A stretch of DNA of 32,000 bases from Candidatus Hermodarchaeota archaeon (GTDB lineage: Archaea; Asgardarchaeota; Heimdallarchaeia; Hodarchaeales; Hodarchaeaceae): the NCBI GenBank assembly GCA_048886185.1, contig JBHLKY010000015.1, positions 1-32,000 on the forward strand. Reading direction: 5' to 3'. The translations under genes were made by a program, and so were the position numbers. Of the stretch, positions 3-21,397 are shown one piece after another (position 1 is the stretch's first letter; each line of letters begins with the position of its first letter). The notes beneath the pieces are model-generated. The model ran no database searches and was not told the origin of the DNA. It saw only the letters and a list, made by a program, of their open reading frames with translations.

Positions 3-422
3 TCTACTGGAATGTATGTAAATGAAAGAGCTGATATAGTAGGTCCAGTTTCAAATGTTTCTGGGAGGGTCGAAATACACATACCCTATTGGCCAAAATT
101 GAAATATGCTATCCAATGGGATACTGCTGCTACTGCCCCTAATTTGACTAGTGTGCTTGCAGGATATTGGGTAGGCTTTAAACGGAGAAATGCTGGACAT
201 ACTTTCACAAAATTAAGGCCGTTGACTTCAGCAATGAGAGGTAATCATGAAATGATATATCAAGAATTCGAGTGGCTTCAACAAGATCAATCATTTCCAG
301 GTGTTATTGGTGCCTGGTATTGTGAAGAATCGTCTCGACTTTATATTGTCACTTATTACGATCTCGATATCGATCTAATCCCAAATGCTCTAAAATTTTT
401 TGATTCCTTTGTATGTCATTGA
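3..422 (+). CDS. Hypothetical protein, probably 5'-truncated by the window edge; C-terminus weakly resembles PsbP/Mog1-like exported archaeal proteins
   Basis: Frame is open from position 3 (first ATG at 12). It ends in ...GAWYCEESSRLYIVTYY...FFDSFVCH, a W-Y-C...S-F-x-C-H pattern I recall from archaeal hypothetical exported proteins. The fold call is weak. Confidence 0.6.
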   Translation, partial: STGMYVNERADIVGPVSNVSGRVEIHIPYWPKLKYAIQWDTAATAPNLTSVLAGYWVGFKRRNAGHTFTKLRPLTSAMRGNHEMIYQEFEWLQQDQSFPGVIGAWYCEESSRLYIVTYYDLDIDLIPNALKFFDSFVCH

Positions 423-683
423 CGAAATTATCTTTCTAAAGACTTTACAAATACCTTAGTATATGAAATTAAATAAGAATATACATTCATCCAGCCTTTT
501 ACGACAGTGATTAATAGAGTTTTAGCAAATATATATAGAATCACTATTTGTCCTAATAATGCTTTTTTTAATTATTTGTCCCATTTTTTCTGTACTCGTC
601 CCTAATGACGTAAAACCGTAAGATCTCATATATACTTAGAAAAAAACGGGGAAAAAAACTTTTTGTGAAAATCAATATGCTAG

Positions 684-881
684 TTATGAAAAGAAACCAT
701 GAGAGGGATTTTTGATTTCAGAGTTGATATCAATGGAGGTAGTAGAAGGGAGATAGAAGATTCCAAATTCATTAATCCATTGATTTATGACAATACATGG
801 GTATTTTTCATGGTATTTGGACATTAACCGTTGGTTAAGTGACATTTCATCAAACTTCGTAAAATCCGTATTTGAAGACAT
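684..881 (-). CDS. Small hypothetical protein (65 aa), doubtful
   Basis: ATG-started ORF in otherwise empty space; no recognisable motif. Confidence 0.3.
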   Translation of the reverse strand: MSSNTDFTKFDEMSLNQRLMSKYHEKYPCIVINQWINEFGIFYLPSTTSIDINSEIKNPSHGFFS

Positions 882-4018: not shown

Positions 4019-6769
4019 TTAAGCTAATATTTCTAATTGTTCTTTTAACTGGGCTCTCTTTCCCTTTAATTCTTTTAATTTATCTTTTTCTTTTTCAACA
4101 ATATCTGGAGGCGCTTTTTGGGCAAATGGACCTTCCAACTTGGAATATATCTGTTTAATTCTTTTCTGAACATTTTCTAATCTATTTTCTACCTTTTTCC
4201 TTTCTTTTACCAGATCTATTACTCCTTCTAAAGGAATATAAGCGGTTATTCCCTGTATAACAAGACGAGCCGCCCGTTTGGTGTCTTCTAAATGAGGTAA
4301 TATGTAAACTTTTTCTGAATTAATTTTACCAAGAGTTATGATTTCATTTCGATATCTTTCAAGGAAATTTACTCTCACATCTGATTGCACTATTAATGGA
4401 ACTGTTTGTGATAAACTGACATCAAATGCAGCCCTGATTCTTCTTATCTCATGAATGAAATCCATTATGAATTTGAACTCCTCTTCGAGTTCTATGTCTA
4501 TGAAATCTTCAATACAATCTGGCCAATTGCCCACGATTAATGCAGGACCTTGTTTAACAGTTTTAGGTAAATTTTGCCACAATTTCTCGGTGATGAAGGG
4601 AACCATTGGATGCAATAATTTTAAGCAGTAATCCAAGACATGTAGTAAGATCACTTTAGGGATAATTTTATCGGTTTCTTCTTCATCATAAAGTCTTATT
4701 TTACTAATCTCAATATACCAATCACAGAATTCATTCCAATAAAAGGCTTTGATTTCTCTGGATGCTTTCAGGTAATCAAAGTTTGTCATATTTTCTGAAA
4801 CAATTTTTACTAGTGAATGTAATCGTGATAGAATCCACTTATCTGGATATTGTAAATCAGCTATTTTGAAGTTCTTAATCGAAGGTAATTCATCATCTCT
4901 CTGAACATTATTAAGTATAAAACGGGTTGATTGCCAGATTTTATTTAGAAAATGATGGGCTGATTCCAATTGGCGGGGATCCAAGTTTGTGTCTATACCA
5001 GGAATACTATTGGATATTAGAACGAATCGCAATGAATCGGCCCCATATTCAGATATAATGTGTAATGGATCGTATTTATCGACATCTTCCATAGACTTGC
5101 TAATCTTTCTGCCCCTTTCATCTCGGATAAGACCGTGCAAATAAACAGTTTTATACGGCGATCTGCCTGTTAATTCGATTCCAAGCATCATCTCTCTAGC
5201 AACCCAAAAGAAAAGAATATCATATCCAGTTTCTCGTGTATCCGTAGGAAAGAATCGTTTAAAATCAGGGTGATCTGTGTTCGGCCATCCAAGTGTTGAG
5301 AATGGCCATAAACCACTTGAAAACCATGTATCTAAGACATCTTCTTCTTGTCTCAAATTTTCACTTCCACAACTTGGGCATTTTTCGAGCTTATCAACAC
5401 TTGGAGGAGGACATATCTCTTCATTACATTCGCAATACCAGATCGGTATTCTATGCCCCCACCAGAGCTGTCTACTGATACACCAATCGTGTATATTTTC
5501 CATCCACAGGAAAAATCTTTTTTCTTCTCGTTCAGGTATAATAATTGTTTCTTTCTTACGTATTCTCTCTAGAGCGGCATTTGCTAAAGTTTTTGTTCTA
5601 ACAAACCATTGCAGAGAAATTCTAGGTTCAATTATTGTATCACATCGTTGGCAATGAGGCTCTTGGTGAAGATAAGGTTCTATTTTAACTAATAGATTTT
5701 CTTTCTTCAAATCCTTTACAATTGCTTCACGGCCCTCCTCACGTGTCATACCAACATAAGGACCTGAATGTTCAGGTAGTAAGTGTACTCTTTCATCTAG
5801 GACAGTTATTACTTCTAAATTATGTCGTTGGCCAATCTCAAAGTCATTAGGGTCATGGCCAGGAGTGATTTTTAGAGCACCTGTTCCAAATTCAGGATCT
5901 ACATAATCATCAACTATAATTGGAATTTCCCGTGCATTAACAGGCAGTATTGCTGTTTTTCCTTCGAATTTACCATACTTTTCATGATTAGCAGCGATAG
6001 CAACAGCTGTATCTCCTAAGAGAGTTTCAGGGCGGGTTGTAGCAACAACAATAAACTCTGGTGCTCCTTCAGCCCACTTACCACTCCCCCACTCAGCTAG
6101 TGGCTTTTTCCAATCCTCATCCACGATTGGATATTTGATGTACCATAACTGACTTGCCTTCTCCCCAGATATTGTTTCTAGATCAGAAATTGCAGATTCA
6201 CAACGAGGGCACCAATTAACCATATATTCCCCTCTATAGATCAATCCTTTTGAATATAAACGGTAGAATGCTTCACGAACAGCTCGTGTACAAACCGAGT
6301 CAAGCGTGAATCTTTCTCTGTTCCAATCGCTACTCATCCCCATCCGTTTTGATTGTTCTGTTATCCGTGTATGATATTTTTCCTTCCATTCCCAGACTTT
6401 TTCGATGAATTTCTCTCGTCCTAAATCCTTTCTTTTAATTCCCTGTTTCAATAGTTCCCTTTCGACTACATTTTGGGTTGCAATTCCTGCGTGATCCGTA
6501 CCAGGGATAAATAAAGCTTCCTTTTGTTGCATACGCGCGAATCGTGTCATAAAATCTTCAATAGAAATTGTAACTGCATGACCAAGATGAAGCTGACCAG
6601 TTACATTTGGCAATGGAATTGTAATACAAAATCGGGGGCTCTTATGTCTATCCACTAATCCCAATTCGATTTGCTTTTCAGGTCTAAAAAATCCATTTCC
6701 TTCCCACCATTCATAGATTTCTTCTTCGAGGCCCCGATGATCATAGGAGGTACCAAGTCCTTCATTCAT
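4019..6769 (-). CDS. valS: Valyl-tRNA synthetase, bacterial/eukaryotic-type
   Basis: PNVTGQLHLGH (HIGH), TDHAGIATQ, ATTRPETLLGDTAVA, FGTGALKITPGHD, WCISRQLWWGHRIP, DVLDTWFSS, GYDILFFWVARE, KISKS (KMSKS variant), and a C-terminal coiled-coil arm containing KAPPDIVEKEK. Confidence 0.98.
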   Translation of the reverse strand: MNEGLGTSYDHRGLEEEIYEWWEGNGFFRPEKQIELGLVDRHKSPRFCITIPLPNVTGQLHLGHAVTISIEDFMTRFARMQQKEALFIPGTDHAGIATQNVVERELLKQGIKRKDLGREKFIEKVWEWKEKYHTRITEQSKRMGMSSDWNRERFTLDSVCTRAVREAFYRLYSKGLIYRGEYMVNWCPRCESAISDLETISGEKASQLWYIKYPIVDEDWKKPLAEWGSGKWAEGAPEFIVVATTRPETLLGDTAVAIAANHEKYGKFEGKTAILPVNAREIPIIVDDYVDPEFGTGALKITPGHDPNDFEIGQRHNLEVITVLDERVHLLPEHSGPYVGMTREEGREAIVKDLKKENLLVKIEPYLHQEPHCQRCDTIIEPRISLQWFVRTKTLANAALERIRKKETIIIPEREEKRFFLWMENIHDWCISRQLWWGHRIPIWYCECNEEICPPPSVDKLEKCPSCGSENLRQEEDVLDTWFSSGLWPFSTLGWPNTDHPDFKRFFPTDTRETGYDILFFWVAREMMLGIELTGRSPYKTVYLHGLIRDERGRKISKSMEDVDKYDPLHIISEYGADSLRFVLISNSIPGIDTNLDPRQLESAHHFLNKIWQSTRFILNNVQRDDELPSIKNFKIADLQYPDKWILSRLHSLVKIVSENMTNFDYLKASREIKAFYWNEFCDWYIEISKIRLYDEEETDKIIPKVILLHVLDYCLKLLHPMVPFITEKLWQNLPKTVKQGPALIVGNWPDCIEDFIDIELEEEFKFIMDFIHEIRRIRAAFDVSLSQTVPLIVQSDVRVNFLERYRNEIITLGKINSEKVYILPHLEDTKRAARLVIQGITAYIPLEGVIDLVKERKKVENRLENVQKRIKQIYSKLEGPFAQKAPPDIVEKEKDKLKELKGKRAQLKEQLEILA

Positions 6770-6853: not shown

Positions 6854-8641
6854 GTGAAATTTTTTATAACTGAAATAAAAACTAGTTCTTGCAATCGAGG
6901 TTACCTCCAGATGAGCTCGTATGATAATTTTTTGAAACCAAGTGAACCTCACTTAGTTGTGGGGCGGCGAAGCCATGAAAAACGATTTGAAGCGATTTTG
7001 GCCGATTTTAAAGAGAATAATCTCAAAGGAAATTTCATTCTCATATCTGGGTCACCTGGAATTGGGAAAACAAGTCTGTTGAAAGTATTTGGTGAAATTG
7101 TAAAGAATGAGATGATGATTTTTGTTCCTGTTAGTATTGGAATGGGAGGGAAAATGAATCAATATCTCTTTCGTGACATATATCAGGCGATTTCCCCTCA
7201 TTTGACGGAAGAAAAAACAGGGTTCTTTAAGAAATCTAAAGAGGAATCAATAAAAGCTTTTACTCCTAAATCAAAAATGTCTGAAATCATCAGTAGCTTT
7301 TCTAATAATCTAACTCATCGCCCCATTAAATCTCCTATTGTAGTTGCTTTAGATCCACTAGATAGAATTCTAGATTCCGGGCAAAAATATGTTATTGAGG
7401 GTTTTCAAGCTCTAATAAAAGTTCTACAGAGTAGGTTTCCACAAGTATTGTTTATTGGTACTTGCCAAGAATACAATGCTGAAGAGATAAAAGAACTTGT
7501 TCAAATTAGTGAGTATTTTGTCTTAGATAAGTTAGATTTTTCTGATTCAAAGCTCTTAATCTCTAAGATCGCTCGCGGAACATTACGAAGTAGTAGTCAA
7601 TTACGAGATGAGTTAGTGAAACAAAGTGATCGCTCCCCTTTCAATCTTGTTTTCATTGTAGATGTGATCCATTGGGTTGAAGACAAAATTAAGCAGGAGG
7701 ATTTAGATGACAACGAAAGAACAATTAAAGAGATGGCTCAACCTTTCGTCCGTACCTTTGCTCTTCGCTCTTTTCTTCAGGAAATACTTAAAATTAATGA
7801 GGGGGAAAATGAAGTACTCCAACTTATGCTAGGATCCCCTCGTAATGCTGTTTCTCAAGAAGTATTTGACTCAGCCAAGATTCCAAGTAGTAACCTCAGC
7901 AGCTTAGAAACCAAAGGATTAATATCTAAACACGGAGATTATTATCAATTATCAAGTTATGCATCTTTTACTCTGCTAGGTTCAGGTCTTTCAGTTGTGG
8001 ATTTAAAAGCTGAGGCAGGTCTATTACTCCAAATTCTAGAAACAGATATGATGATGGGATTTGAGATCAATCCAAAGGTTTTGGAACGGTTAGAACAGGC
8101 TTCATTCTCTGCAGGACGATTAGAAGATAAATCTATACCAAATCGTACAAAATCCCTTTTTCAAAGTGCTTTTGAAACCAGAAAATTCTTTGAAGCTTAT
8201 CGTTTAGCTTTACTTACAGGTAATTTTTTACGGATGGCGAAGGATGTGGAGGGTTGTGGTCTTTTCTTTGAGGAATGTGCCCGAGAGTTCTATAATCAAG
8301 AGAAACTTCCATATACAATTGCACTTTATCGAAAATCTCTGGAAGCATATCGTTTAGTAAAGAATGAGAGGAAACGTAAAGATATCAGTCAGCGAACTGC
8401 AATGATTTATCTTCAAAATGCTGAAAAATATGATAAGCAACACCAATTAGAATTAGCCCGATCATCATACTATCACGCTTTTAAATTATTTGAAGGAGCA
8501 GATGACATCAATTCAGCAACTGATGCTGTTAGTAAGGCAATTAAGACATATTCATCAGATGCAGAGGCATCTTTCTTTAAATCACTTCAAAAAAATCTCA
8601 AACCAAGAATAGTAAAATCTCCAACAGAGATTAATAATTGA
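6854..8641 (+). CDS. STAND/AAA_16-like P-loop NTPase with winged helix and C-terminal TPR/alpha-SNAP-like helical repeats
   Basis: VVGR pre-P-loop motif, Walker A ISGSPGIGKT, Walker B-like IVVALDPLD, GxP-equivalent RSPFNL, wHTH-like LSSLETKGLISKHGDYYQL, and helical repeats after about 8190. Start is either GTG 6854 (GAGGTGA upstream) or ATG 6911. Confidence 0.8.
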   Translation: MKFFITEIKTSSCNRGYLQMSSYDNFLKPSEPHLVVGRRSHEKRFEAILADFKENNLKGNFILISGSPGIGKTSLLKVFGEIVKNEMMIFVPVSIGMGGKMNQYLFRDIYQAISPHLTEEKTGFFKKSKEESIKAFTPKSKMSEIISSFSNNLTHRPIKSPIVVALDPLDRILDSGQKYVIEGFQALIKVLQSRFPQVLFIGTCQEYNAEEIKELVQISEYFVLDKLDFSDSKLLISKIARGTLRSSSQLRDELVKQSDRSPFNLVFIVDVIHWVEDKIKQEDLDDNERTIKEMAQPFVRTFALRSFLQEILKINEGENEVLQLMLGSPRNAVSQEVFDSAKIPSSNLSSLETKGLISKHGDYYQLSSYASFTLLGSGLSVVDLKAEAGLLLQILETDMMMGFEINPKVLERLEQASFSAGRLEDKSIPNRTKSLFQSAFETRKFFEAYRLALLTGNFLRMAKDVEGCGLFFEECAREFYNQEKLPYTIALYRKSLEAYRLVKNERKRKDISQRTAMIYLQNAEKYDKQHQLELARSSYYHAFKLFEGADDINSATDAVSKAIKTYSSDAEASFFKSLQKNLKPRIVKSPTEINN

Positions 8642-8645
8642 AACG

Positions 8646-8650
8646 GGTGA
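8646..8650 (+). promoter_or_regulatory. Archaeal-type ribosome-binding site GGTGA
   Basis: GGGTGAGAAGTT-ATG; 6 nt upstream of ATG 8657, inside the 15-bp gap after the ATPase stop. Confidence 0.6.
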
Positions 8651-8656
8651 GAAGTT

Positions 8657-10813
8657 ATGAGTACAGAACAAAATGATAAAATTAGTGAAATTCAAGATCA
8701 AAAAATAAAAATAGAAAGCGAAAACACTCAGATTCAGCAAAGAGTTTTAAATTTTCAAAAAGAAAGTAAAAAAGCAGTGGAAAGTTTTACCAGTTCATTG
8801 AACCAATCTAAGTCAAAAACTCTTTCTGAAATTAACTTATTAATGGATAATATCGATAATTTAACGAAAGAACTAGAGGATTACAAGAAAAGAACCCTAG
8901 TCTCGGAGAAAGGAGCTTTAAGTAGCCGATTGGATGGCTTGTTAGGACAGGTTAACTCTAGTATAGAGGGATTACAGAAATCAGTTATTGAATTATCTAC
9001 TAAACAGGAAGAAGACGTTTCTACAATCTATTCACAAATGGGGAGAAAAATTAACACTGGATTAAGTGATATTTATTCCAACCAACGAGCTCAGATAACT
9101 GAATTTGAAAAATCTATTTCTAGTAAATTAGCCCAAATTCAACGTGATATTGTTAGTACAGTTGAAAGTGAAAGTGCTAATCAGCGAGAGATGACCGAAA
9201 ATATTGCTACTTATTTCTTAGAATCATTAGATGATTTTCAATCAAAAATTAGAGATCTAAGTGATTCCAAAGAAACAAATGTGGATGCAATCTTTACTAG
9301 TACAGTCAGCGAGTCTGTGGGTCGTCTAGAGATAGCCAAAGAGGATTTACTAGCAAGTATTGATGGTGTAATGAATAATCTTGAGGAAAGTCTTTCTAAT
9401 CAAAAATCAACGAATGAACAGATGCAGTCAGCTATTAAGGATTTAATTACAAAAACAAAATCGGATGTCAAAACAAGAATTGAGAATCAACTATTGGAAT
9501 CAAGGGAAGACTGGAAAACAATTCAAGATACAGAAATAGAATCTCTTTCATCTGTTAAAGAAACTACTATAGGTTCTTTTCAGAAAGCCTTGGAAACCAG
9601 TGAATTATCTCAAAATAATCTATTAGCTGAATTAGAAAACCAATTAAAAACCAATCTTTATAATGAAATTGATAATATTACCCTTTCTTTTACGAAATTT
9701 CAGGACTCGATTATCAATCAAATTGATGCTCTCATTTCCCGGTTAACAAGTGCTCGTGATGAGATGAGAGAAAGCTTAAGCAGTCTTCTTGTAAGTAATT
9801 TGAATAAAATAGGTGGGATCGGGAAGCAGCTTGAACAACACCTTTCAGGAGTATTATCCCAAATTTCTGATGAATATGAAAACAGTCGAGAGAGCATTTA
9901 CACAAGTTTAATTGCTGCTATCGAAGAAAGATTCAGTAAAATAGTTACTTCTCTGGAACAATATACAACAACAACCAACTCTAAACTCCAAAAAACCGCT
10001 ACTGATCTTGATGTTTCTCTTCTTGACTTTTTTGATTCAACACAGAAGAATATCTCTGAGACAGTTGATAAAAACAGTTCGACACTTAATCAACTAAGGA
10101 ACACTGTTAATGAGTCTTTTAGAACCCTACAAGCGGGACAGGAAAAAAATATAGAGACTACACTTACTGATGTTCGAGCAGCTTTGCGAACGAAACAAAG
10201 TGAATTGGTTACCACCATTAGCAGTATTTCTCCAGCTGCTGAAGATCATATTGAATCCAATCGTGAATATATTGAAGGAAAGAAATCAGAAATATCAAGA
10301 ACAAGTTCTACTGCTTTTGACGACCTTAGAAAACAGGCAATTGCTATTGAACAGGATGGAATGACCACTATTCATTCCATTGTCGGAGAAACTAATCAGA
10401 AACTTGATGAAAGTATCAGTATCAGTGAGCAGAGTACTAAAGAACTCATTGAAGGACTAGAGGATGAACATAAACTATCCGTTGCGAAATTCCGTTCAAA
10501 TTCTACTCAAGAACTAGATAAACATTTGGAAACTCTCACTGAATATCAAAATAATCTCCAGGAAAAATTCACAAAGTTTTTTGATAATCAACAACAAAGT
10601 CTTGATTTGTTTGTCAACGCAAACCGAAAGGGTCGAGAAGCAATAGATGATCAACGTCGTAATCTTGATGTTAAGTTCGAAGAGATTAATAATAGCATCG
10701 AGACCGCTGCCGATTCACTCTCTATGAATATTACCACTAATACAGGAAATGTTACAACTTCGGTAAAACAGGTTTTAAAGGATGTTAATGATGTTATCAA
10801 GACTATAAAATGA
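8657..10813 (+). CDS. Long soluble all-alpha-helical / coiled-coil protein (apolipoprotein-like amphipathic repeats)
   Basis: 718 aa, rich in S/T/E/Q/N/L/I, with 1 Pro, 1 Trp, no Cys, no TM segment and continuous 3-4 hydrophobic spacing. Confidence 0.85.
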   Translation: MSTEQNDKISEIQDQKIKIESENTQIQQRVLNFQKESKKAVESFTSSLNQSKSKTLSEINLLMDNIDNLTKELEDYKKRTLVSEKGALSSRLDGLLGQVNSSIEGLQKSVIELSTKQEEDVSTIYSQMGRKINTGLSDIYSNQRAQITEFEKSISSKLAQIQRDIVSTVESESANQREMTENIATYFLESLDDFQSKIRDLSDSKETNVDAIFTSTVSESVGRLEIAKEDLLASIDGVMNNLEESLSNQKSTNEQMQSAIKDLITKTKSDVKTRIENQLLESREDWKTIQDTEIESLSSVKETTIGSFQKALETSELSQNNLLAELENQLKTNLYNEIDNITLSFTKFQDSIINQIDALISRLTSARDEMRESLSSLLVSNLNKIGGIGKQLEQHLSGVLSQISDEYENSRESIYTSLIAAIEERFSKIVTSLEQYTTTTNSKLQKTATDLDVSLLDFFDSTQKNISETVDKNSSTLNQLRNTVNESFRTLQAGQEKNIETTLTDVRAALRTKQSELVTTISSISPAAEDHIESNREYIEGKKSEISRTSSTAFDDLRKQAIAIEQDGMTTIHSIVGETNQKLDESISISEQSTKELIEGLEDEHKLSVAKFRSNSTQELDKHLETLTEYQNNLQEKFTKFFDNQQQSLDLFVNANRKGREAIDDQRRNLDVKFEEINNSIETAADSLSMNITTNTGNVTTSVKQVLKDVNDVIKTIK

Positions 10814-10914
10814 ATTGATACTTGGAATTTTTAATAGTAGGGATTATTTCATTATATATTAATACTCCTTGTTTACTTGAAGATCATTTTAACTTAAATA
10901 CAGGTGTAACAATT

Positions 10915-11427
10915 ATGTCCTATCCCAAAGAAGTCGCGTGTCATTTTATTGGGGTTGGAGGGGTTATATTTCACAATACTAGAGTACTACTTGTTAAACT
11001 GAATTATGGCCCTGCAAAAGGTAGATGGCTAATTCCAGGGGGCTTAGTTGATCCAGGGGAGACATTACGAGAGGCAATAAAAAGGGAAATTCTAGAGGAG
11101 ACTGGACAGAATATTAGGCCACTTGGAATCATAGGAGTTAGAAGTATGGTGCGTACAATAGATAATCTGACCGATCTTTATTGCATTTTCCTCTGTCAAT
11201 TGGAATCTGAACCAAAACCTCTAGTAAGAGCAGATGAAGAAATTAATGATATTAGATGGATAAGTATGAATGAGTTACATGAAGACTCAGCGGTTGCTGA
11301 TTACACTAAAATAATTGTAACAAAAGCCCGTCATTGTCAACTCTTGCAATATGATTTAGAAATGGAAGAACTCGCCATTAGACGGCCTAATCTGAAAAAA
11401 TACGAACATTTCTGGACGTGTTTATAA
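10915..11427 (+). CDS. Nudix hydrolase (NUDT6 / ADP-ribose-NADH pyrophosphatase-like)
   Basis: Nudix box GGLVDPGETLREAIKREILEETG and N-terminal HFIGVGGVIF. ATG 10915 preferred over TTG 10822. Confidence 0.9.
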   Translation: MSYPKEVACHFIGVGGVIFHNTRVLLVKLNYGPAKGRWLIPGGLVDPGETLREAIKREILEETGQNIRPLGIIGVRSMVRTIDNLTDLYCIFLCQLESEPKPLVRADEEINDIRWISMNELHEDSAVADYTKIIVTKARHCQLLQYDLEMEELAIRRPNLKKYEHFWTCL

Positions 11428-11471
11428 ATCTGGAATGAATTCTTAAGTTAAATATTGTCTTGGGCAAGGAA

Positions 11472-12155
11472 ATGATTGAGAAAGAATACTACTCTAAAAA
11501 ACTCTCTGCATTACGTTTGAAGCGTTGTTATGAGATTGCATCACCAAGAATCAAGCAATACTTAGAAGCTGAAATCCAATATGTTTTGGGACAAATTATT
11601 CCATCAGATACAGTTCTTGAACTTGGTTGTGGATATGGGAGAGTTTTAGGAAGACTTTCTAAGAAAGCACAGACTGTATATGGTATTGATATATCAGAAG
11701 CAAGTATTATTCTTGCACAGGAATTCTTAACTGATTTATCTAATGTTAAATTACAAATTATGAATGCTCAATCATTAGCTTTTGCTGACCAAGTTTTTGA
11801 TATGGTTATAGCGATCCAGAATGGTCTTTCCGCCTTCAAAGGTGATCCCAATGAAACAATTAAGGAAAGCATTAGAGTCACTAAACCTGGAGGTAAGGTA
11901 TTATTCTCTAGTTATTCAGAAAAAATCTGGGAGGAGCGACTTAATTGGTTTATTCAACAATCTAAAAATGGATTACTCGGGGAAATAGATTTGGAAAAGT
12001 CCAAAAAAGGTGAAATTATTTGCAAAGATGGGTTTAAAGCAACAACTTATACACCAGAATATTTCTCCCTTTTATCAATGAAATTAGGTTTAAAAACAGA
12101 GATTAAGGAAATTGATCAATCAAGTATCTTTTGGATTATTCATGTTAATCATTAG
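11472..12155 (+). CDS. Class I SAM-dependent methyltransferase
   Basis: VLELGCGYG (motif I), YGIDIS, FDMVIA, RVTKPGGKVLF. ATG 11472 preferred over TTG 11460. Confidence 0.9.
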   Translation: MIEKEYYSKKLSALRLKRCYEIASPRIKQYLEAEIQYVLGQIIPSDTVLELGCGYGRVLGRLSKKAQTVYGIDISEASIILAQEFLTDLSNVKLQIMNAQSLAFADQVFDMVIAIQNGLSAFKGDPNETIKESIRVTKPGGKVLFSSYSEKIWEERLNWFIQQSKNGLLGEIDLEKSKKGEIICKDGFKATTYTPEYFSLLSMKLGLKTEIKEIDQSSIFWIIHVNH

Positions 12156-13200
12156 AGTGCAATAATTTATGCAATTCTTCTACATTGAACTTGTATCCAT
12201 TCCATATCTTATATTTTCTGAAGCCTAACTGTTTATTGATTGCTATCATAGGTTTATTAATGATTGCAAAATCCGTAGCAACAAATCTTACCTCTGGAAA
12301 CATTTTCCTAGCATAAGTTAACATTTCTGCTTTCAACCATTTTCCCAACCCACGACCTCGATATTCCTTTTTAACTCCTGTAAGACCTTGATATAAGAGG
12401 GTTGCCTGATCTGGTTGGTAGAATGTCTCTGTTAATCCACTTATTACTCCATCTTTCTCTTTGGATATTATTGTAGTCCAAGTTTGGTTTAATATTTTAG
12501 AATGCTTTTCTCTAATTCTTCTTGTTACAGGAGTTTCAACCTCTTCCCATTCAAGTTCCCCTTTTGGAACTTGGTTAAGTGTTTCAGTAAATAACTTACA
12601 ATACTCTTCTATGTCTTCTTCTGGTACGATTTCAAATTGCGCAATAGTCACTCCCTCAGTACGCTGTGATCCTTTGGTTATCCATTCATTTACTATCTTC
12701 CAATCAACCTCATCCAGCGATAATCGAGATTCTTCTTCTGTTAACGCAATTTTCCCCCCATATTGTTCACAAAACGCTTTCCCAGTTTTCAAATGGCTTC
12801 CTCCTTGAATTATCATTTTTCCTTCCTCTTTTACTTTGTTTACTTGAATTTTTAGTAATTCGGAACCTAATCTAAGCCTTCGGTGCTTCTTATCAATAGA
12901 TAGATCACAGAAAGCGATGTGCTTATTCATTTTGTAAGCAGGAGCTGATCTATCGTAAATTGAAACTTTCCCATATCCAATCACTTTATCTTTTTCTTTA
13001 GAATGGATCATCCATCTGTAATTCTTGAAATTAGGGTCGGGATTTTGTAAATTTTTCTTAATTCTTTCTCTCGACGGTAAGGGGTCATCAGGAAAGATTT
13101 CTAAAAGGATCTTCTCGTAAAAATCGAATAATTTTTTCCATAAATCATCAGAAGCAGTATGTGGATCAAAAACAGTAATTTCTGGTTTTGGTTTACTCAT
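12145..13200 (-). CDS. Tandem-domain GNAT acetyltransferase
   Basis: Two acetyl-CoA-binding motifs (HRRLRLGSELL and YRGRGLGKWLK) and a C-terminal MIAINKQLGF; 3' end overlaps the methyltransferase by 11 bp. Confidence 0.88.
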   Translation of the reverse strand: MSKPKPEITVFDPHTASDDLWKKLFDFYEKILLEIFPDDPLPSRERIKKNLQNPDPNFKNYRWMIHSKEKDKVIGYGKVSIYDRSAPAYKMNKHIAFCDLSIDKKHRRLRLGSELLKIQVNKVKEEGKMIIQGGSHLKTGKAFCEQYGGKIALTEEESRLSLDEVDWKIVNEWITKGSQRTEGVTIAQFEIVPEEDIEEYCKLFTETLNQVPKGELEWEEVETPVTRRIREKHSKILNQTWTTIISKEKDGVISGLTETFYQPDQATLLYQGLTGVKKEYRGRGLGKWLKAEMLTYARKMFPEVRFVATDFAIINKPMIAINKQLGFRKYKIWNGYKFNVEELHKLLHSND

Positions 13201-13390
13201 AAATTCACTCTTCAGGTATTAAATAATATCAAAGACAGAATCTGTGTAAAAGCATAGTGTTTAAAAAATTCTCTAAAACTATTTTTAAACGTAAAAGATA
13301 CTATATTTAGGCAAATAATAAATTCATAAGTCTGAGAATATATGGCTTTCAAGTTAAAGCAAGTGATTCCCTTTTTGGGGATAAAATCAT

Positions 13391-13624
13391 ATGTCTAAGA
13401 AACAAGAACATCCATTACTGTTTATTATCACCGTAGCTTTGTCAAGTGTGATAATGCTTATTCTTTTCTATACTAATATTATTATTTTCTTCTTTGTCTT
13501 TCTTGCAGTCCTTGGTTGGAATATTGGACGAAGAATTCAAAGAAGAAAGGCAACTGTTATCCATCCTGATGATGAGCTTCAAAAATATATTACTCAGATA
13601 GACAACATGATGAAGGAGCGATAA
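13391..13624 (+). CDS. Small membrane protein (two TM helices plus short cytoplasmic tail)
   Basis: 77 aa; long hydrophobic stretch followed by basic GRRIQRRK. Confidence 0.65.
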   Translation: MSKKQEHPLLFIITVALSSVIMLILFYTNIIIFFFVFLAVLGWNIGRRIQRRKATVIHPDDELQKYITQIDNMMKER

Positions 13625-13718
13625 TCATCCATTTATATTTAAAAATTAACCAAAATTAAAAACATCCCTAGGGGCGCAATCACTTGTGATATCAAGTATA
13701 TTTATCTTTCATAGTTTA

Positions 13719-14156
13719 TCAATATCTTAATCCATATTCACAATAGAATTTAAGGAGGGTTAATGCTTCTCCCCATCCAACTGCACACTCAAGACAACGT
13801 TGGTGCCCTTCTATTGTATTTGCGTAACCATATTCTTTGAGATTAACAACAGTCCCTTCTTCTACTTCAATGAAGTCTATCTCAACTGTTGTATAATGAT
13901 CTTCCCACCATCTAAACACAATACGTTCAGGGATTTTGACTTCTACAATCGGACAAGTTGCTTGAGTATTCATTTTATCGACTCCCCAATCTACCCATTT
14001 AAAGATAATTCTACCTCCAGGTCTACGGTCAACTTGAGCTCCCTTAGTAAACCATCCATCTAATCCATCTGCGGTTGTCAGGCTATCAAAGACTTTTGTT
14101 TGGTCTGATCTTATCATAACCTTATGAGTTATTGGTGTAGCGATTATCGACATCAT
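13719..14156 (-). CDS. SRPBCC/AHSA1 (START-fold) ligand-binding protein
   Basis: VFDSLTTADGLDGWF, RPGGRIIFKW, PERIVFRW and GWGEALTLLKFYCE follow the AHSA1 pattern. Confidence 0.88.
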   Translation of the reverse strand: MMSIIATPITHKVMIRSDQTKVFDSLTTADGLDGWFTKGAQVDRRPGGRIIFKWVDWGVDKMNTQATCPIVEVKIPERIVFRWWEDHYTTVEIDFIEVEEGTVVNLKEYGYANTIEGHQRCLECAVGWGEALTLLKFYCEYGLRY

Positions 14157-14287: not shown

Positions 14288-15067
14288 GTGATTGAAACGA
14301 AAGGAATAATCTTCGACATAAAGAAATTTGCCATTCACGATGGCCCTGGAATACGTACAACTATATTTTTAAAGGGTTGTCCATTAAACTGCTGGTGGTG
14401 CCATAACCCAGAAGGCCAGAACCCAAACTCTGAAATAATATGGAAAAATCAGAAGAAAGAGCTAGTTGGACGAGTGGTAGGTGTTAAAGAGGTATTAGTT
14501 GAAATAGAAAAAGATCTAATTTTTTATGATGAATCTGGTGGAGGTATTACTTTTTCTGGTGGGGAACCATTAATGCAGCCTGTTTTCCTGGAACACCTGT
14601 TAATTGCCTGTCAGAAACGAGAACTTTCAACAATTCTCGATACGTGTGGATATGCTTCATGGAAGGTTATTGAAAAAATAAAGGATAATGTAGATTTATT
14701 TTTATATGATCTAAAGATGATAGATGATAAAAAACATCTTAAATATACTGGAGTGTCAGTTCTACCAATATTAGCTAATTTAAAGAAGCTCGATAGTATA
14801 GGTGCAAATATTATTATCCGTTTTCCAGTCATAACAGGAATTACCGAAACAGAAGAGAATGTTAGGCAAATGACTGAATGGTTATCCAAGCTTCAAACAA
14901 TTAAAGAAATTGATCTTCTTCCTTTTCATAAAAGCGGTTTTAATAAATATAAAAAGTTGAATCGGGAAAATAAAATGCTAAATCTGAATCCCCCATCAAC
15001 AGAAAGGCTGAATCAAATTTTAGACATTTTTAGCGAGCTGGGATTTGTCAGTAAGCTCGGAGGTTAA
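14288..15067 (+). CDS. Glycyl-radical enzyme activating protein (radical SAM), short form without ferredoxin insertion
   Basis: HDGPGIRTTIFLKGCPLNCWWCHNPE (CxxxCxxC), GGITFSGGEPLMQ, DTCG, DLFLYDLK; only 3 bp separate it from the GRE. Confidence 0.96.
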   Translation: MIETKGIIFDIKKFAIHDGPGIRTTIFLKGCPLNCWWCHNPEGQNPNSEIIWKNQKKELVGRVVGVKEVLVEIEKDLIFYDESGGGITFSGGEPLMQPVFLEHLLIACQKRELSTILDTCGYASWKVIEKIKDNVDLFLYDLKMIDDKKHLKYTGVSVLPILANLKKLDSIGANIIIRFPVITGITETEENVRQMTEWLSKLQTIKEIDLLPFHKSGFNKYKKLNRENKMLNLNPPSTERLNQILDIFSELGFVSKLGG

Positions 15068-15070
15068 GAA

Positions 15071-17437
15071 ATGAACGAACGTATTCGAAAATTACGTGAA
15101 CAGAGCTTAAAAGCTAAACCTTGGTTAGATCCTGAAAGGGCAATTTTAATTTCGCAATTTTACCAAAGTGAGATTGCTGACAGAGTTTCAATCCCTGTAA
15201 AGAGGGCCCTAGCCTTCAAATATATCTTAGAGAATAAGACAATATGCATTAATGACGGGGAGTTGATTGTGGGGGAAAAAGGATCGGAATCAAAAGCTGC
15301 GCCTACCTATCCAGAATTATGTGTTCATAGCATGAAAGATCTTGAAATACTAAATTCTAGAGAAAAAATATCATTTATGGTTAGTAAAGAAACACAGAAT
15401 ACTTATACTAAAACCATCATTCCGTTTTGGAAGAATGGTAAATCTATCAGGGACATAATTTTTAGATCAGTTTCGGAAGAATGGAAAGCTGCTTATAAAG
15501 CGGGTGTATTTACAGAATTTCAAGAACAAAGAGCTCCTGGACATACAGTTCTGGGGGAGAAGATCTATCAGAAAGGATTTCTGCATCTCAAGAAAGATAT
15601 TAAACAATCTATAGAAAGTTTAGATTTTTACAATGACCGTGAAGCCTTTGATAAAAAAGAAGAATTAGAGGCAATGGACATTGCTGCAGATGCACTAATT
15701 TCTTTTGCTAATCGTTATTCAAAAGCATTAAAGGAACTCGCCAAAGAGGAGAAAGATGAATTTCGTTCTCAAGAATTATTAAAAATGTCAGAAATTTGTC
15801 ATTGGGTTCCTGCCCACTCCCCACGAACATTTTGGGAAGCTTTACAGTATTACTGGTTCGTTCACCTAGGAGTTACAATTGAATTAAATACATGGGATTC
15901 TTTCAATCCTGGGAGGTTGGATCAACATCTTTACCCCTTTTACAAAAAAGAGCTTGAGGAGGGGATTTTGTCTGAAGAGAAGGCAACAGAACTTCTTCAA
16001 GCATTTTGGATTAAGTTCAATTCTCAGCCAGCTCCCCCAAAAGTTGGTGTAACCGCTCAAGAAAGCAATACTTACACTGATTTCTCATTAATTAACATTG
16101 GAGGAGTAAAGGAGGATGGATCTGATGCGACAAATGAACTCTCTTATTTATTACTGGATGTTATTGAAGAGATGCGGTTGTTGCAGCCTAGTTCTATGGT
16201 TCAGTTGAGTAAAAAGGGTCCCAATCGCCTACTTAGAAGAGCTTTCAAGATTATTAAAACTGGATATGGTCAGCCCTCAATTTTCAATACTGAGGCCATT
16301 ATCCAAGAAATGATTCGCCAGGGGAAATCTCTGAGAGATGCAAGGAAGGGTGGAGCTAGTGGATGCGTGGAGACTGGTGCATTCGGAACAGAATGTTACA
16401 TATTAACTGGTTATTTTAATCTGCCAAAGATTCTTGAAATTACTTTGAATAACGGTGTTGATCCCAGAACAGGAAGAGAAATTGGTTTAATTACTGGTGA
16501 TCCCGTTTCCTTCCAGAATTTTGAAGAGTTCTATGATGCCTATGAGAAGCAGTTGAATCACTTCATTAATATTAAAATCAAAGGAAATAACATCATTGAA
16601 AGGATTTATGCAAAATATATGCCAGCTCCTTTTCTTTCCTTGTTGATTGATGATTGTATAGTTAATGGGAAAGATTATAATGCTGGAGGGGCTAGATATA
16701 ATACATCATATATCCAAGGTGTAGGATTAGGTAGTATAACTGATTCTTTAACCGCAATAAAATATAATATATTTGATCATGACCTTATTAATATGAACGA
16801 ACTTCTTCAGGCTTTAAAAGCGAACTTCGAAGGATTTGAAGATATTAGAAGTCGTTTACTTAATGAAACACCTAAATATGGAAATGATGATGATTATGCT
16901 GATTCTATCACAACACAGATTTTCGAGAGTTATTTTAATGCTGTTGATGGACGGCCTAATACTAAGGGGGGCCATCATAGGATAAATCTTCTTCCTACAA
17001 CTGTTCATATATATTTTGGACAAAAAACTGGCGCTATGCCTGATGGAAAAAAGAATAGAGAACCCCTCTCCGAAGGGATTTCTCCTGTTCAGGGAGCAGA
17101 TAGGAAAGGACCTACTGCAGTGATAAAATCTGTATCAAAAATTGATCACTTAAGGACTGGAGGGACTCTCCTAAATCAAAAATTTACTCCAGCACTTTTA
17201 GCCACAGATGAAGGGATTGAAAAAATGATGCATCTTGTCCGTACTCATTTCAAACTTGACAATCACCATATTCAATTTAATGTAGTTACTGCTGATACTT
17301 TAAGAAAGGCCCAGATGAATCCTGAAAGGTATCGTGATTTAATAGTACGTGTTGCAGGTTACAGCGATTATTTTGTTGACCTGATACCAGAATTACAGAA
17401 TGAGATTATTAAAAGAACTGAATATGAGAGTTTTTAA
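15071..17437 (+). CDS. hypD: Glycyl-radical enzyme, trans-4-hydroxy-L-proline dehydratase
   Basis: Gly loop RVAGYS and single-Cys loop SGCVE. HypD-diagnostic segments: EFQEQRAPGHTV, ELNTWDSFNPGRLDQ, QPAPPKVG...ESNTYTDF, CYILTGY, LLPTTVH. Confidence 0.88.
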   Translation: MNERIRKLREQSLKAKPWLDPERAILISQFYQSEIADRVSIPVKRALAFKYILENKTICINDGELIVGEKGSESKAAPTYPELCVHSMKDLEILNSREKISFMVSKETQNTYTKTIIPFWKNGKSIRDIIFRSVSEEWKAAYKAGVFTEFQEQRAPGHTVLGEKIYQKGFLHLKKDIKQSIESLDFYNDREAFDKKEELEAMDIAADALISFANRYSKALKELAKEEKDEFRSQELLKMSEICHWVPAHSPRTFWEALQYYWFVHLGVTIELNTWDSFNPGRLDQHLYPFYKKELEEGILSEEKATELLQAFWIKFNSQPAPPKVGVTAQESNTYTDFSLINIGGVKEDGSDATNELSYLLLDVIEEMRLLQPSSMVQLSKKGPNRLLRRAFKIIKTGYGQPSIFNTEAIIQEMIRQGKSLRDARKGGASGCVETGAFGTECYILTGYFNLPKILEITLNNGVDPRTGREIGLITGDPVSFQNFEEFYDAYEKQLNHFINIKIKGNNIIERIYAKYMPAPFLSLLIDDCIVNGKDYNAGGARYNTSYIQGVGLGSITDSLTAIKYNIFDHDLINMNELLQALKANFEGFEDIRSRLLNETPKYGNDDDYADSITTQIFESYFNAVDGRPNTKGGHHRINLLPTTVHIYFGQKTGAMPDGKKNREPLSEGISPVQGADRKGPTAVIKSVSKIDHLRTGGTLLNQKFTPALLATDEGIEKMMHLVRTHFKLDNHHIQFNVVTADTLRKAQMNPERYRDLIVRVAGYSDYFVDLIPELQNEIIKRTEYESF

Positions 17438-17917: not shown

Positions 17918-18415
17918 CTACAAATTATTTTCTTGAATATTCAATTCATCGAAGTAAAAGAGATAATCTGCATCAATTCTCTCCCTATTCATCTTTCTAA
18001 GAATATAGTTAAGCTGACCCCGATGGTACACGGTATGTAAAATATATTGGAGATAGAAATCATCTAAATTTAGAATAAAAGAGCTAGTGTCCATTCTTTG
18101 AATTGTTACTTTACCTTGGTTTTCTTGTTGTAATGCATTGGCGATTTCAGTATCACGAGATTCCCAATGGTCTAATAACTCTTTATTGGACATAGATTTA
18201 AGACGGTTTACTATTTCTTCAAAAGATGAAGATTTATCTGAAATTTGGTTAAAGCAAGATTCTATTGCTAGAATAATGTGTTCAATCTTGTCTCTAATAC
18301 TTCCTAATAAGGGATCTGGAATAATTTTAAATTCTTCCTCTTTTAGTGATCTTAATAGTCTTCTAGATTCATTTCCAGACCATAAATGATATTTTCCAAG
18401 ACTTTTAATACCCAT
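17918..18415 (-). CDS. DinB/YfiT-family protein (four-helix bundle, metal-binding His triad)
   Basis: SIRDKIEHI (His1) and LHTVYHRGQL (His2, His3). ATG 18415 preferred over 18448. Confidence 0.85.
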   Translation of the reverse strand: MGIKSLGKYHLWSGNESRRLLRSLKEEEFKIIPDPLLGSIRDKIEHIILAIESCFNQISDKSSSFEEIVNRLKSMSNKELLDHWESRDTEIANALQQENQGKVTIQRMDTSSFILNLDDFYLQYILHTVYHRGQLNYILRKMNRERIDADYLFYFDELNIQENNL

Positions 18416-18463
18416 TTTACGTATTCTCCTCACTTGAATAACTTTCATCGGATTAATAAAGAA

Positions 18464-19627
18464 TCAGCACTCCTTGAGTGGTGACATAACCGATCCTGCA
18501 GTCTTTCTATTTAATGGGATCATTGAATCACATATCTTTATGAGTACTTCCTTAAAGGTAATGAACTCACCGATTCTCTTAGCTTTCAACAAAATATCAC
18601 TCAATATAGCTTCTTCAGTTGCTTCAAAGAGAAATAACTTTATTATTGGATTTTTTTCTTTTAAAATGTCCCAGATTCCAATTACTTGACCATTGAGTAA
18701 AATTGTAGATGTAGCATTCCCCGTACGATCAAAAACATAACTGTAGTATTTAGAGTGAATTAATCTTTCACGTTCTTTATAACCCATTAAAAAAGGATCC
18801 AAAGCTGGCAACAAATTGACATTACTTTTTCTAAAAGAAAGCTTTTTCCTCAAGAAAGCAGTATCTGTTTGTAGTATGAGGAGATTCTTATTCAAATCCG
18901 AAATATCAATATAAACGATTTTATCTTGAAAATGATTCAATGCATTAAGAATAGTTATTTTTCCCAACCCAGTCCACCATGCAATATCCTCTTGAGAAGC
19001 AGGACCAAAGGCGTTTAAATAGTGTTGAACTAATTTGATTATTGCTTGTTGTTCATTCCACTCTGATAATTCCAGATCTGGAAAATATGTGCTAAAAAGT
19101 GAATACTTTCGTGGTTTAGCTCTTATTAGTAATTTCTGGTCACACATATGATATAAAATATAAGAGATATTTTGTTCAGTTTTTAGAGCTTTCTTAATTT
19201 CAGAGGCGGTCATTTCTCCTTTATCGGCGATTTTTTTTAGTACCAATTCCGAAATTTCTTTGTACTCCTCTGAGGAGATCCCTCGAAATTCTAAAGCTCT
19301 TTTTGATTGATTTAAAACTAAATTGTTTGTTGCAATAGAAACTATTGGGATTATTTCTTTAGGAAAGATATATAGAGTTTTTCTAATGCCTCTTATTTTT
19401 CCAAGGCTTTTATTAATATATAATGCATTATCTAACTTTTCTGGTGTAAAATCTCTGGTTCTAGCGAACAAGGAAAGGTATGGAGTTGTCGAACTAGTTG
19501 CATGCAGCCCACCAATATCTTTTATTACTTTAATAAGGTCTTGACTTGTTGAATAATCTATTAAATGTTGTTTATATAAAACAAAGTCATTAATATCGTT
19601 TAATGTAGTACTCTGCATATTAATCAT
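18464..19627 (-). CDS. AlkZ/YcaQ-family (HTH_42) winged-helix DNA glycosylase
   Basis: GGLHAT...PYLSLFART, RGIRKTLY, LVQHYLNAFGPASQEDIAWWTGL, LLPALDPFLMGYKER, ILLNGQVIGIW. Confidence 0.88.
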   Translation of the reverse strand: MINMQSTTLNDINDFVLYKQHLIDYSTSQDLIKVIKDIGGLHATSSTTPYLSLFARTRDFTPEKLDNALYINKSLGKIRGIRKTLYIFPKEIIPIVSIATNNLVLNQSKRALEFRGISSEEYKEISELVLKKIADKGEMTASEIKKALKTEQNISYILYHMCDQKLLIRAKPRKYSLFSTYFPDLELSEWNEQQAIIKLVQHYLNAFGPASQEDIAWWTGLGKITILNALNHFQDKIVYIDISDLNKNLLILQTDTAFLRKKLSFRKSNVNLLPALDPFLMGYKERERLIHSKYYSYVFDRTGNATSTILLNGQVIGIWDILKEKNPIIKLFLFEATEEAILSDILLKAKRIGEFITFKEVLIKICDSMIPLNRKTAGSVMSPLKEC

Positions 19628-19966: not shown

Positions 19967-21397
19967 ATGAATAGTATTATTCAGCAGAGACAGTATCAGC
20001 ACAAAATATTAGAGATGCTGAAAGATAATTATATTCAAGGATATAATACTATCGTTGAAGTTGATACGGGATTGGGAAAACGTGTTCTCACATATTTACT
20101 CATTAAGGATATTCTTAAAGATAAGAAAGTTCTTCTTCTGTTGCATTCAACAATAAGTTATTCTGAAACAATTCACTACTTCAAGGAACACTATGGTGGT
20201 TTTGTAAATTCTGAGTTTCAAAGTTTTTCTAGCCAAACTCCTGGATTTATTCGACAAAAAATTCTTGAAGATGCTCAAATCGTAGCATCCACCCCTCAAA
20301 CATTTTTAAATGCTTTCAATAAACTAACTATAAAGCCAAAATTTGATGGAATCATTATTAATGAAGTAGATAAAATAGTTCGACGTCATGGGGATTCGAG
20401 GTTACTGATTTATCCCTACAACACTCTCATTCCTTATTTTGTAAATTTAAATTCTTGGATTGTTGGTATGACGGGCACTATTCGTGATAAACATATTTTC
20501 TATAATGAAAGAAGAGATACTATTGAACTGCAAGAAGAACTCGTTGCACTCGATAAGAGAATTCCAGTATTACATATCATTCGGATGGATTCTCTTTTAG
20601 CACATACTGATATCCAAAATTACATTCAAAATACATATATTCGGCAATATCACGTTAAACCAAGCCCTGAATTACGATTGGTTCTAAAATTGATAGATCA
20701 TGCTATAGAGAATTTACGTCAGGAAATCATAAACGAAACCATGGAGGAACGACCAACACTTCTTGAATTTATTCCTTCCTCCGAGTATGCTCTTGTTTCT
20801 GGTATGTTGGATACTGAATCTGGGGATAATCAAAAGTATCAAGGACTGCTATTAATACGAAAATACTGTACTGCAATGCAGGTACAAAAGTATCGGAAAT
20901 TTCTCTACCGTTTGAAGAAATTTGGAATAACAAAAGATATTATCCAAGCTTTACCAGAACACAATTCCAAAACTAGTACATTACTCCAAATTATTAATGA
21001 TCAACCACCAAATTCTAAAACAGTTGTATTATGCTCATTTTTGGATACAGCCCAAAAACTGGATGAAGAAATTCAAAAGATGGGTATTGCTACCTTTCGT
21101 ATAACCGGCAAAGTTCGAGACAAAATATCCATTTTAAATAGTTTTAAGGAATTAGAAGGAAAATCTGTTTTAGTAATAACATCTGTGGGTGAGAGAGACC
21201 TTGATATCCCCCAAGCAAAGCTATTAATTGTTTATGATGTTGTGAACACCGTGAAAACAATGTATCAGAGATTTAAGAGAACCCGTGGGGGATTAGTCTT
21301 ATGTTTATCTTACCAAGAGACTTTTGAAGAGAGGAAAGTGGCCCGATTACTTCAAGAGATTAGTAAACGTTATCCATGGTCTTCTATTATTGAATAG
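19967..21397 (+). CDS. Hef/FANCM-like SF2 helicase domain with degenerate motifs and no ERCC4 nuclease
   Basis: DTGLGKR (I), STPQT (Ib), INEVD (II), GMTGT (III), TSVGERDLDIP (V), QRFKRTRG (VI). Confidence 0.78.
   Translation: MNSIIQQRQYQHKILEMLKDNYIQGYNTIVEVDTGLGKRVLTYLLIKDILKDKKVLLLLHSTISYSETIHYFKEHYGGFVNSEFQSFSSQTPGFIRQKILEDAQIVASTPQTFLNAFNKLTIKPKFDGIIINEVDKIVRRHGDSRLLIYPYNTLIPYFVNLNSWIVGMTGTIRDKHIFYNERRDTIELQEELVALDKRIPVLHIIRMDSLLAHTDIQNYIQNTYIRQYHVKPSPELRLVLKLIDHAIENLRQEIINETMEERPTLLEFIPSSEYALVSGMLDTESGDNQKYQGLLLIRKYCTAMQVQKYRKFLYRLKKFGITKDIIQALPEHNSKTSTLLQIINDQPPNSKTVVLCSFLDTAQKLDEEIQKMGIATFRITGKVRDKISILNSFKELEGKSVLVITSVGERDLDIPQAKLLIVYDVVNTVKTMYQRFKRTRGGLVLCLSYQETFEERKVARLLQEISKRYPWSSIIE

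Follow-up and report, generated by a model that had tools for sequence, protein, structure and literature searches.

Are the two genes that stand side by side at positions 6,854 to 10,813 of a Hodarchaeales contig a two-gene system in their own right, and what could the encoded proteins be doing together? The genes lie within a stretch of 32,000 nucleotides (JBHLKY010000015.1, positions 1 to 32,000, from assembly GCA_048886185.1 of a Candidatus Hermodarchaeota archaeon), referred to here as the window, and encode an ATPase of the STAND type and a 718-aa protein that is nearly all helix, which we call the rod. A first-pass annotation, made from the sequence alone, had taken them for a self-contained system and had offered two models for it: an analogue of NSF/SNAP acting on a coiled-coil partner, or an NLR-like sensor with its effector supplied in trans by the rod. 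Comparison across Asgard genomes gives another answer to the first question, as the pair is no stand-alone system but the form, with two genes, that an Asgard-wide operon takes in Hodarchaeales. As to the second, the reading that we prefer, though tentatively and with a confidence somewhat short of even, is that of a STAND nucleotide switch docking on a length-calibrated antiparallel rod scaffold which is probably linked to DNA. No description of the pair or of the operon was found in the searchable literature, in line with the annotation, which had not recognised the pair as a described system. What this analysis adds is the two-gene form seen in Hodarchaeales, a rod that is mirror-symmetric and locked in length to the residue, variants lacking the P-loop or the ATPase, and the measurement of a weak SNAP signal.

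The ATPase and rod genes are adjacent and co-oriented, 23–55 bp apart, in all ten of the other genomes of f1, the family to which the window belongs, that have both on one contig. The same arrangement is found in loci L001, L003 and L005, which differ in their flanking genes, and in the latter two of these the 15-bp spacer of the window is repeated exactly. The two proteins also diverge together, with identities to the window ATPase and rod of 61/58, 49/45, 46/36 and 31/22%. The neighbourhood comparison across Asgard genomes that the first-pass annotation had suggested thus returned a conserved pair, and the linkage is far beyond chance. That the two genes are mere neighbours with unrelated functions is hardly credible: although the binding of the two proteins is something that we infer, and rods of a shorter form do occur without the ATPase, adjacency has been kept from 61% down to approximately 20% identity, in two orientations and between changing flanks, with the spacing conserved as well. 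No fused ATPase-rod protein was found among longer proteins, which is weak evidence.

At 11 distant loci in Asgard genomes, the gene directly downstream of an ATPase homolog encodes a protein with an 11-residue (hendecad) repeat, of 425–1123 aa, at a distance of −44 to +20 bp and in one case 492 bp; the codons of the two genes often overlap or abut. Seven of these loci add a third gene, the product of which (1176–1729 aa) carries hendecad repeats behind a winged-helix head of the TrmB type, and the hendecad period is present in all second and third genes of the distant loci. The second-gene rod measures 425–529 aa in several other lineages as against 718 aa in the window, and the two forms are bridged by L025, where the ATPase is accompanied by a true 717-aa homolog of the window rod and by a TrmB rod of 1729 aa. 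The window shares with these loci a family ATPase directly followed by a hendecad-repeat protein, but it has no TrmB-headed third gene, and a NUDIX hydrolase and a methyltransferase are encoded downstream instead. The idea of a self-contained two-gene system fails at this point, since elsewhere in Asgard the operon carries the TrmB-headed giant rod. The source genome does encode three unlinked rods with TrmB/TrmBL2-like heads (one of them matching TrmBL2 with E 5e-6), which are probably the dispersed third gene of the operon; in the sister family f2, too, the operon does not include the third gene. One of the three, in L029, lies 900 bp from a convergent gene for a 1001-aa SMC-like protein (7975–10980, minus strand).

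A broad profile detects the ATPase in 85 of the 400 Asgard genomes, always in about one copy. It is present in f4 (31/31), f6 (11/12), f14 (6/6), f28 (5/5), f5 (3/3) and f15 (3/3), is rare in the largest family (f20, 1/135) and was not found in f7 (0/12). The close rod family is present in 15 of the 21 genomes of f1 and in one genome each of f2 and f7, and in the source genome (4.84 Mb, 96% complete) the ATPase and the rod are both single-copy. The distribution of the ATPase is therefore housekeeping-like. Apart from P-loop noise among bacteria and methanogens, a close-alignment search returned Hodarchaeota-type contigs only, and is no real test outside Asgard.

In its domain make-up the product of the first gene is a STAND NTPase, consisting of a nucleotide-binding domain (NBD), a helical domain (HD), a winged-helix domain (WHD) and a TPR-like C-terminal domain. 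The P-loop core carries Walker A (GSPGIGKT) and the Walker B Asp (in VVALDPLDR), and is followed by a helical domain with a GxP-like motif (SDRSPF), by a winged helix and by a C-terminal repeat domain. In the AlphaFold model, obtained with 17 homologs at a predicted local distance difference test (pLDDT) value of 88, the first three domains extend to residue ~362, up to which the model aligns to MalT, Orc1/Cdc6 and NLRP3. Foldseek places the Pyrococcus STAND-TPR protein 6mfv first, with a full-length match, and then archaeal ATPases, Orc1/Cdc6, NOD2, Avs and SAMD9. Model and fold matches bear out the domain order read in the first-pass annotation, with no N-terminal effector domain, and its placement of the protein with STAND/AAA_16 and not with the NSF/Cdc48 clade agrees with the Pfam AAA_16 match (1.1e-8, 36 bits against a cut-off of 32.6), besides which weaker P-loop families were seen. 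A match to the MIT domain (E 0.055) was discarded as noise.

The annotation had read Walker B as LDPLD, which is correct, as is the absence of Glu or Asp immediately behind the Asp, and had concluded that the usual second acidic residue is lacking, which is not. GSPGIGKT, D148, D151 (Asp+3), R152 (Arg+4), S239, P243 and F244 are invariant in the close family, and the wider family has hhhhD-x-h-[DE]-R; because Asp+3 is invariant in the one and [DE] occupies the same place in the other, the second acid is displaced to +3 and not absent. The extended Walker B of NACHT proteins is DGxDE, and the motif of the ATPase family resembles it. The match to Pfam NACHT itself reaches 16.5 bits against a cut-off of 26.7 and covers the P-loop only, which leaves the protein outside that family.

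Among the closest known systems are the MalT-type STAND NTPases (E. coli MalT, 8bob; Pyrococcus 6mfv), which have TPR sensor domains. The window ATPase differs from these in having no DNA-binding or other effector domain, in its Walker B of the form D-x-h-[DE]-R and in being coupled to a rod gene. Compared with NACHT/NLR proteins (NLRP3, NOD2 and bacterial Avs), it has no LRR, WD40 or effector domain, and its distribution is of the housekeeping kind. An NLR-like immune sensor, the repeat domain of which would sense an invader while the rod served as effector or guard target, would explain the STAND architecture, the NACHT-like D-x-x-[DE] Walker B and the fold matches to NLRP3, NOD2 and Avs, and the absent effector domain could come in trans. 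This second model of the first-pass annotation is nonetheless a poor fit and very doubtful: the ATPase is single-copy and near-universal in whole families (31/31, 11/12, 6/6 and 5/5 genomes), its synteny is stable, with valS, a glycyl-radical enzyme and a helicase nearby and not defence or mobile genes, and the rod, which carries neither an enzymatic nor a pore-forming domain, is held to its length with a strictness unlike that of fast-evolving immune effectors. PADLOC, which had been named as a means to exclude known Avs systems and also covers Zorya, Lamassu, Wadjet and others, yielded noise only, namely mad8 over 29 P-loop residues of the ATPase (E 0.0022) and, on coiled-coil stretches of the rod only, a ZorA tail (E 8e-11) and JetC/LmuB (1e-3 to 1e-4). 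NCBIfam ZorA scores 18.8 bits on the rod against a cut-off of 190, and the rod has no MotA-like membrane domain. A defence role is unlikely because of this noise-only result, the stability of the locus and its surroundings, in which no mobile-element or defence-island genes were seen.

The C-terminal domain of the ATPase is certainly TPR-like, and in the AlphaFold model it has seven helices of 12–24 residues at 408–544. In a profile search of the PDB with residues 365–576 and their counterparts, the top five matches are Sec17 and four alpha-SNAP entries (E 8.5e-4 to 1.1e-3), behind which rank designed and natural TPR proteins. Pfam SNAP (PF14938) matches eight of the 17 family members, more than any single TPR family does, with a best E of 1.8e-4 and all matches below the cut-off; the window ATPase reaches 11.2 bits against a cut-off of 25 and is thus not a member of the SNAP family. 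The language-model neighbours of the domain are generic TPR clusters, one of which is named SNAP/TPR, and whole-model structure searches are dominated by the NTPase core and not by this domain. The SNAP likeness that the first-pass annotation had pointed out is therefore weak but repeatable (Sec17/alpha-SNAP at E ~9e-4), without rising above a family cut-off, and a specific tie to SNAP is possible as judged from these profiles. In eukaryotes alpha-SNAP/Sec17 is the adaptor of NSF on SNARE bundles, and the SNAP fold consists of helical hairpins in a twisted sheet and of a globular bundle at the C-terminus. The window domain is a helical-hairpin stack and its genetic partner forms long helical bundles, but it is fused to a STAND core instead of working with an NSF-type AAA+ ring, and it has no SNARE-like partner, so that we speak of likeness and not of membership. 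Among distant homologs, and among those that lack the P-loop, this domain is the best-kept part of the protein.

The rod consists of 27% Leu/Ile/Val/Phe/Met and 36% Ser/Thr/Asn/Gln, has a single Pro and carries a net charge of −37. As the first-pass annotation had stated, it is nearly all helix and has no transmembrane segment, which is confirmed by an AlphaFold2 (AF2) model and by a highest 19-residue Kyte-Doolittle mean of 0.66. A single sharp hydrophobic periodicity of 3.66 residues (11/3, i.e., hendecad) runs through it with ~92% phase coherence over all 718 residues, giving 65 hendecads with a core of positions a, d and h that are mostly Leu/Ile. An old internal duplication with a lag of ~275–283 is also detectable. 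Rod homologs at 15–18% identity (711–731 aa) align end to end with zero internal indels, and the sole indel across the family is a clean loss of residues 335–389, centred at 362. Conservation along the rod is mirror-symmetric, with r 0.68 at i+j=727 (about residue 363) when computed with the long forms only, a value reached by 0 of 300 block shuffles. The midpoint of the lost 55 residues coincides with this symmetry point and with the predicted tip of the hairpin. Mirrored conservation, the loss centred at 362 and the indel-free homologs, all of them independent of the structure model, agree with antiparallel pairing about residue 360–363.

The AF2 model of the rod (pLDDT 74, predicted template-modelling score, pTM, 0.29) consists of four long helices with breaks at 202–223 and 503–524, where pLDDT falls below 50, and the low-confidence breaks (196–227 and 498–524) are the most conserved motifs of the rod. 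In this model helix 1 packs against helix 4 (matching the chemoreceptor, MCP, 2ch7 over residues 27..696 and 7n6g_3M over 61..686 at 3.5 A) and helix 2 against helix 3 (matching the Smc arm 5xg2 over 231..490 and 4ke2 over 254..466 at 3.4 A). The structural alignments have the folded elbow of cohesin as their top row, and whole-model searches give generic long-helix matches only (SMC arms, MCPs and ciliary proteins); the arms of SMC, MukB and Rad50 and the hairpins of chemoreceptors are among the closest known systems. The rod would be either a monomer folded back at ~360 (~50 nm, with a conserved two-strand joint at 202–223/503–524) or an extended antiparallel dimer (~105 nm), and both forms fit. 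The two are indistinguishable because the predicted tip (354–366), which is without Gly or Pro, keeps the full hendecad amplitude.

Scy and FilP of Streptomyces are long non-heptad scaffold proteins, to which the rod may be likened in architecture, with no sequence relation seen. The growth-pole-ring protein GPR of Agrobacterium is another such protein (PMC8262873). Like the rod, these are continuously helical for hundreds of residues and have apolipoprotein-like or hendecad-based repeats, and theirs build cellular scaffolds; unlike the rod, they have no STAND partner and no residue-exact conservation of length. An 11-residue amphipathic period running through the whole protein could also be that of a lipid-surface coat, in which the rod, in the manner of apolipoproteins, perilipins or phasins, would lie on lipid or polymer bodies or on membranes and would be loaded or regulated by the ATPase. 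Profile matches to ApoA-I and ApoA-IV in the PDB (E 1.6e-5 to 2.5e-4), and sub-threshold Pfam matches to Apolipoprotein, joined in relatives by ApoLp-III, Phasin and PhaP, would agree with this. We give this explanation little credence, as the hydrophobic stripe is narrow (~3/11 positions, Leu/Ile) and resembles a coiled-coil core, the net charge is strongly negative, the lock on length and register and the mirrored conservation point to a fixed protein-protein pairing, and no lipid or polymer genes are conserved near the pair in L001, L003, L005 and the window. The match to Apolipoprotein A1/A4/E (PF01442) reaches 49.4 bits against a cut-off of 90, short of membership, and what is shared is the 11-residue periodicity only.

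The preferred reading, a switch on a fixed-length scaffold, may be spelled out as follows. The ATPase would dock on the rod via its TPR/SNAP-like domain, either at the conserved joint motifs, AKEDLLAxIDG and QEKNIETTLTD, or at the central segment that is lost in ATPase-less rods, and its nucleotide state would gate where or when rods, the halves of which pair antiparallel, assemble into a scaffold of fixed length. This scaffold would probably be tied to DNA through TrmBL2-like proteins bearing giant rods of the same repeat type; the tie is considered probable because the operon elsewhere adds a TrmBL2-like DNA-binding rod and the source genome has three unlinked ones. The ATPase is read as a switch or regulated adaptor and not as a motor, since the rod and the TPR/SNAP-like domain are the parts conserved across the variants while the nucleotide site, usually intact, is dispensable in some lineages.

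A number of observations weigh against this reading, the first being these variants themselves. In L024 and L026, metagenome contigs of 49% and 31% G+C, a 721- or 723-aa rod is encoded head-to-head with a 439–464-aa ATPase homolog which has lost the P-loop and kept the C-terminal domain, and the homolog in L021 is also without Walker motifs. The head-to-head order in L024 and L026 means that the link between ATPase and rod has outlived rearrangement, and, with the motifs missing in all three loci, nucleotide turnover is not universally needed. Furthermore, a sister clade of short rods (661–664 aa) is found in five genomes, 84–93% complete, which have no detectable ATPase, so the rod can work without it. 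These short rods (L008, L009, L010, L011 and L012) form one clade and have neither the central five hendecads nor an ATPase neighbour; one genome holds both forms, and there only the long rod adjoins the ATPase. As a docking site for the ATPase, the central 55 residues have a single evolutionary event behind them and are a lead only. The low pTM of the rod model, the low confidence at its breaks and a tip without Gly or Pro weigh against the reading as well. When the rod was modelled in complex with ATPase residues 365–576, without controls, the score was 0.14 with the mark at 0.32, which speaks neither for nor against binding. Finally, the binding of ATPase to rod, the role as a switch and the link to DNA are what we infer from these comparisons, and the last of them derives from genes that are unlinked in the source genome. 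With regard to the surroundings of the short rods, in L008 and L009 they are divergent from a 1077-aa gene, and in L012 the short rod precedes the same glycyl-radical enzyme pair as is found after the long rod of L003.

The same variants weaken the other model of the first-pass annotation, an NSF/SNAP-like remodeller in which the ATPase would oligomerise, grip bundles of rods through its SNAP-like domain and drive their disassembly or recycling with ATP. STAND proteins are switches and not unfoldases, and neither lineages that pair the rod with a P-loop-less homolog nor a sister rod clade without any ATPase would be expected of such a machine. It can claim the Sec17/alpha-SNAP matches and the Pfam SNAP hits of the C-terminal domain, a partner that forms long helical bundles with an acidic surface like that of SNARE bundles, and the tight coupling of the operon, and we regard it as unlikely.

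A broader version of the preferred switch-and-scaffold reading, improbable at present, would make the rod a molecular ruler that, together with the STAND switch and TrmBL2-like DNA-anchored giant rods, forms an Asgard-specific, DNA-linked intracellular scaffold, a prokaryotic counterpart of a nucleoskeleton or long-range tether, with the SNAP-like domain as an early hairpin-stack adaptor reading helical bundles. No archaea stand closer to eukaryotes than Hodarchaeales and the other Heimdallarchaeia, of whose cell biology, to our knowledge, very little is known beyond actin, ESCRT and small GTPases. The genes described here make up a single-copy set that whole families have kept, and the rods are tens of nm long with a length unchanged to the residue down to 15% identity. 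So strict a length is seldom seen and points to a role in measuring or spacing. Should the rods be joined to DNA via their TrmB-headed relatives, the module would constitute a new kind of chromosome-linked scaffold, and a genuine SNAP likeness would have a bearing on the origin of the bundle-reading adaptor fold of eukaryotes. Both proteins are soluble and simple enough for in vitro work, and proteome data have been reported for at least one cultured member of the Hodarchaeales (bioRxiv 10.64898/2026.07.02.735847).

Table 1. Features of the ATPase-rod locus and of related loci. Positions are those of the window unless a locus or residues are given.
Feature	Position	Strand	Remarks
STAND-ATPase ORF as listed	6854-8641	+	595 aa from GTG
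STAND-type P-loop NTPase gene, likely product	6911..8641	+	576 aa from ATG 6911
NBD-HD-WHD core	ATPase residues 1-362	+	AlphaFold model, fold matches
TPR-like/SNAP-like helical-repeat domain	8003..8593 (residues 365-561)	+	model and profile searches
Candidate promoter and ribosome-binding site, ATPase gene	6860..6901	+	TTTTTTATAA 6860-6869; GAGGT 6897-6901; read from sequence
Spacer between ATPase and rod genes	8642-8656	+	15 bp; GGTGA at 8646-8650, 6 nt 5' of ATG
Rod gene	8657-10813	+	718-aa hendecad-repeat protein
Predicted helices of the rod	residues 2-201, 224-356, 363-502, 525-717		AF2 model
Central segment of the rod, lost in short forms	9659..9823 (residues 335-389)	+	55 residues = 5 x 11
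valS	4019-6769	minus	Pfam tRNA-synt_1 1.8e-136; divergent from the pair
Three-gene operon loci	L015, L017, L018, L019, L022, L023, L025		STAND ATPase, hendecad rod and TrmB-headed giant rod
TrmB/TrmBL2-like-headed rods in source genome	L027:5312-7456; L028:5295-7577; L029:4675-7077	+; -; +	714, 760, 800 aa; unlinked; contigs C3, C6, C16
P-loop-less ATPase homologs	L024:5090-6454; L026:4467-5879	-; -	GPQQVS replaces GSPGIGKT

The layout given by the first-pass annotation, with two co-oriented genes separated by 15 bp that contain GGTGA and divergent from valS, agrees in its coordinates with what is listed in Table 1, and the start of the ATPase gene can be refined. The N-terminus added by the GTG start is common to no homolog. 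All 17 aligned homologs (560–578 aa) begin at the Met of ATG 6911, and this codon is preceded, within the GTG-extended ORF, by a TTTTTTATAA box and GAGGT; ATG 6911 is for these reasons probably the true start, giving a product of 576 aa, and 6860..6901 the probable promoter and ribosome-binding region.

The window has a G+C content of 33%, and the neighbours of the pair are housekeeping or metabolic genes: valS, NUDIX, methyltransferase, GNAT, glycyl-radical enzyme with activase, and helicase. A NUDIX hydrolase gene, with a TTG start 8 bp 3' of the rod stop, and a class I SAM methyltransferase gene (10822–12155) run in the same direction as the pair, with which they may be co-transcribed in the source genome; they were rejected as parts of the system, as they do not adjoin the pair in its relatives (L001, L003 and L005). 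In L001 the pair is flanked by giant Laminin_G_3/DUF2341 proteins of >2200 and >3600 aa (L001:12636-17686 and L001:1-5292), which are unrelated to it. Further downstream in the window come a PFL-like glycyl-radical enzyme of 788 aa and its radical-SAM activase (14288–17437), separated from the pair by the NUDIX, methyltransferase, GNAT and AHSA1-like genes (10822–14156), and a ResIII/Helicase_C helicase (19967–21397); the order rod, glycyl-radical enzyme, helicase is the same in L003. Between these, an AlkZ-like DNA glycosylase (18464–19627, minus strand; Pfam 2.8e-43) is encoded beside a DinB-family protein (17918–18448, minus strand), forming a small DNA-repair pair.

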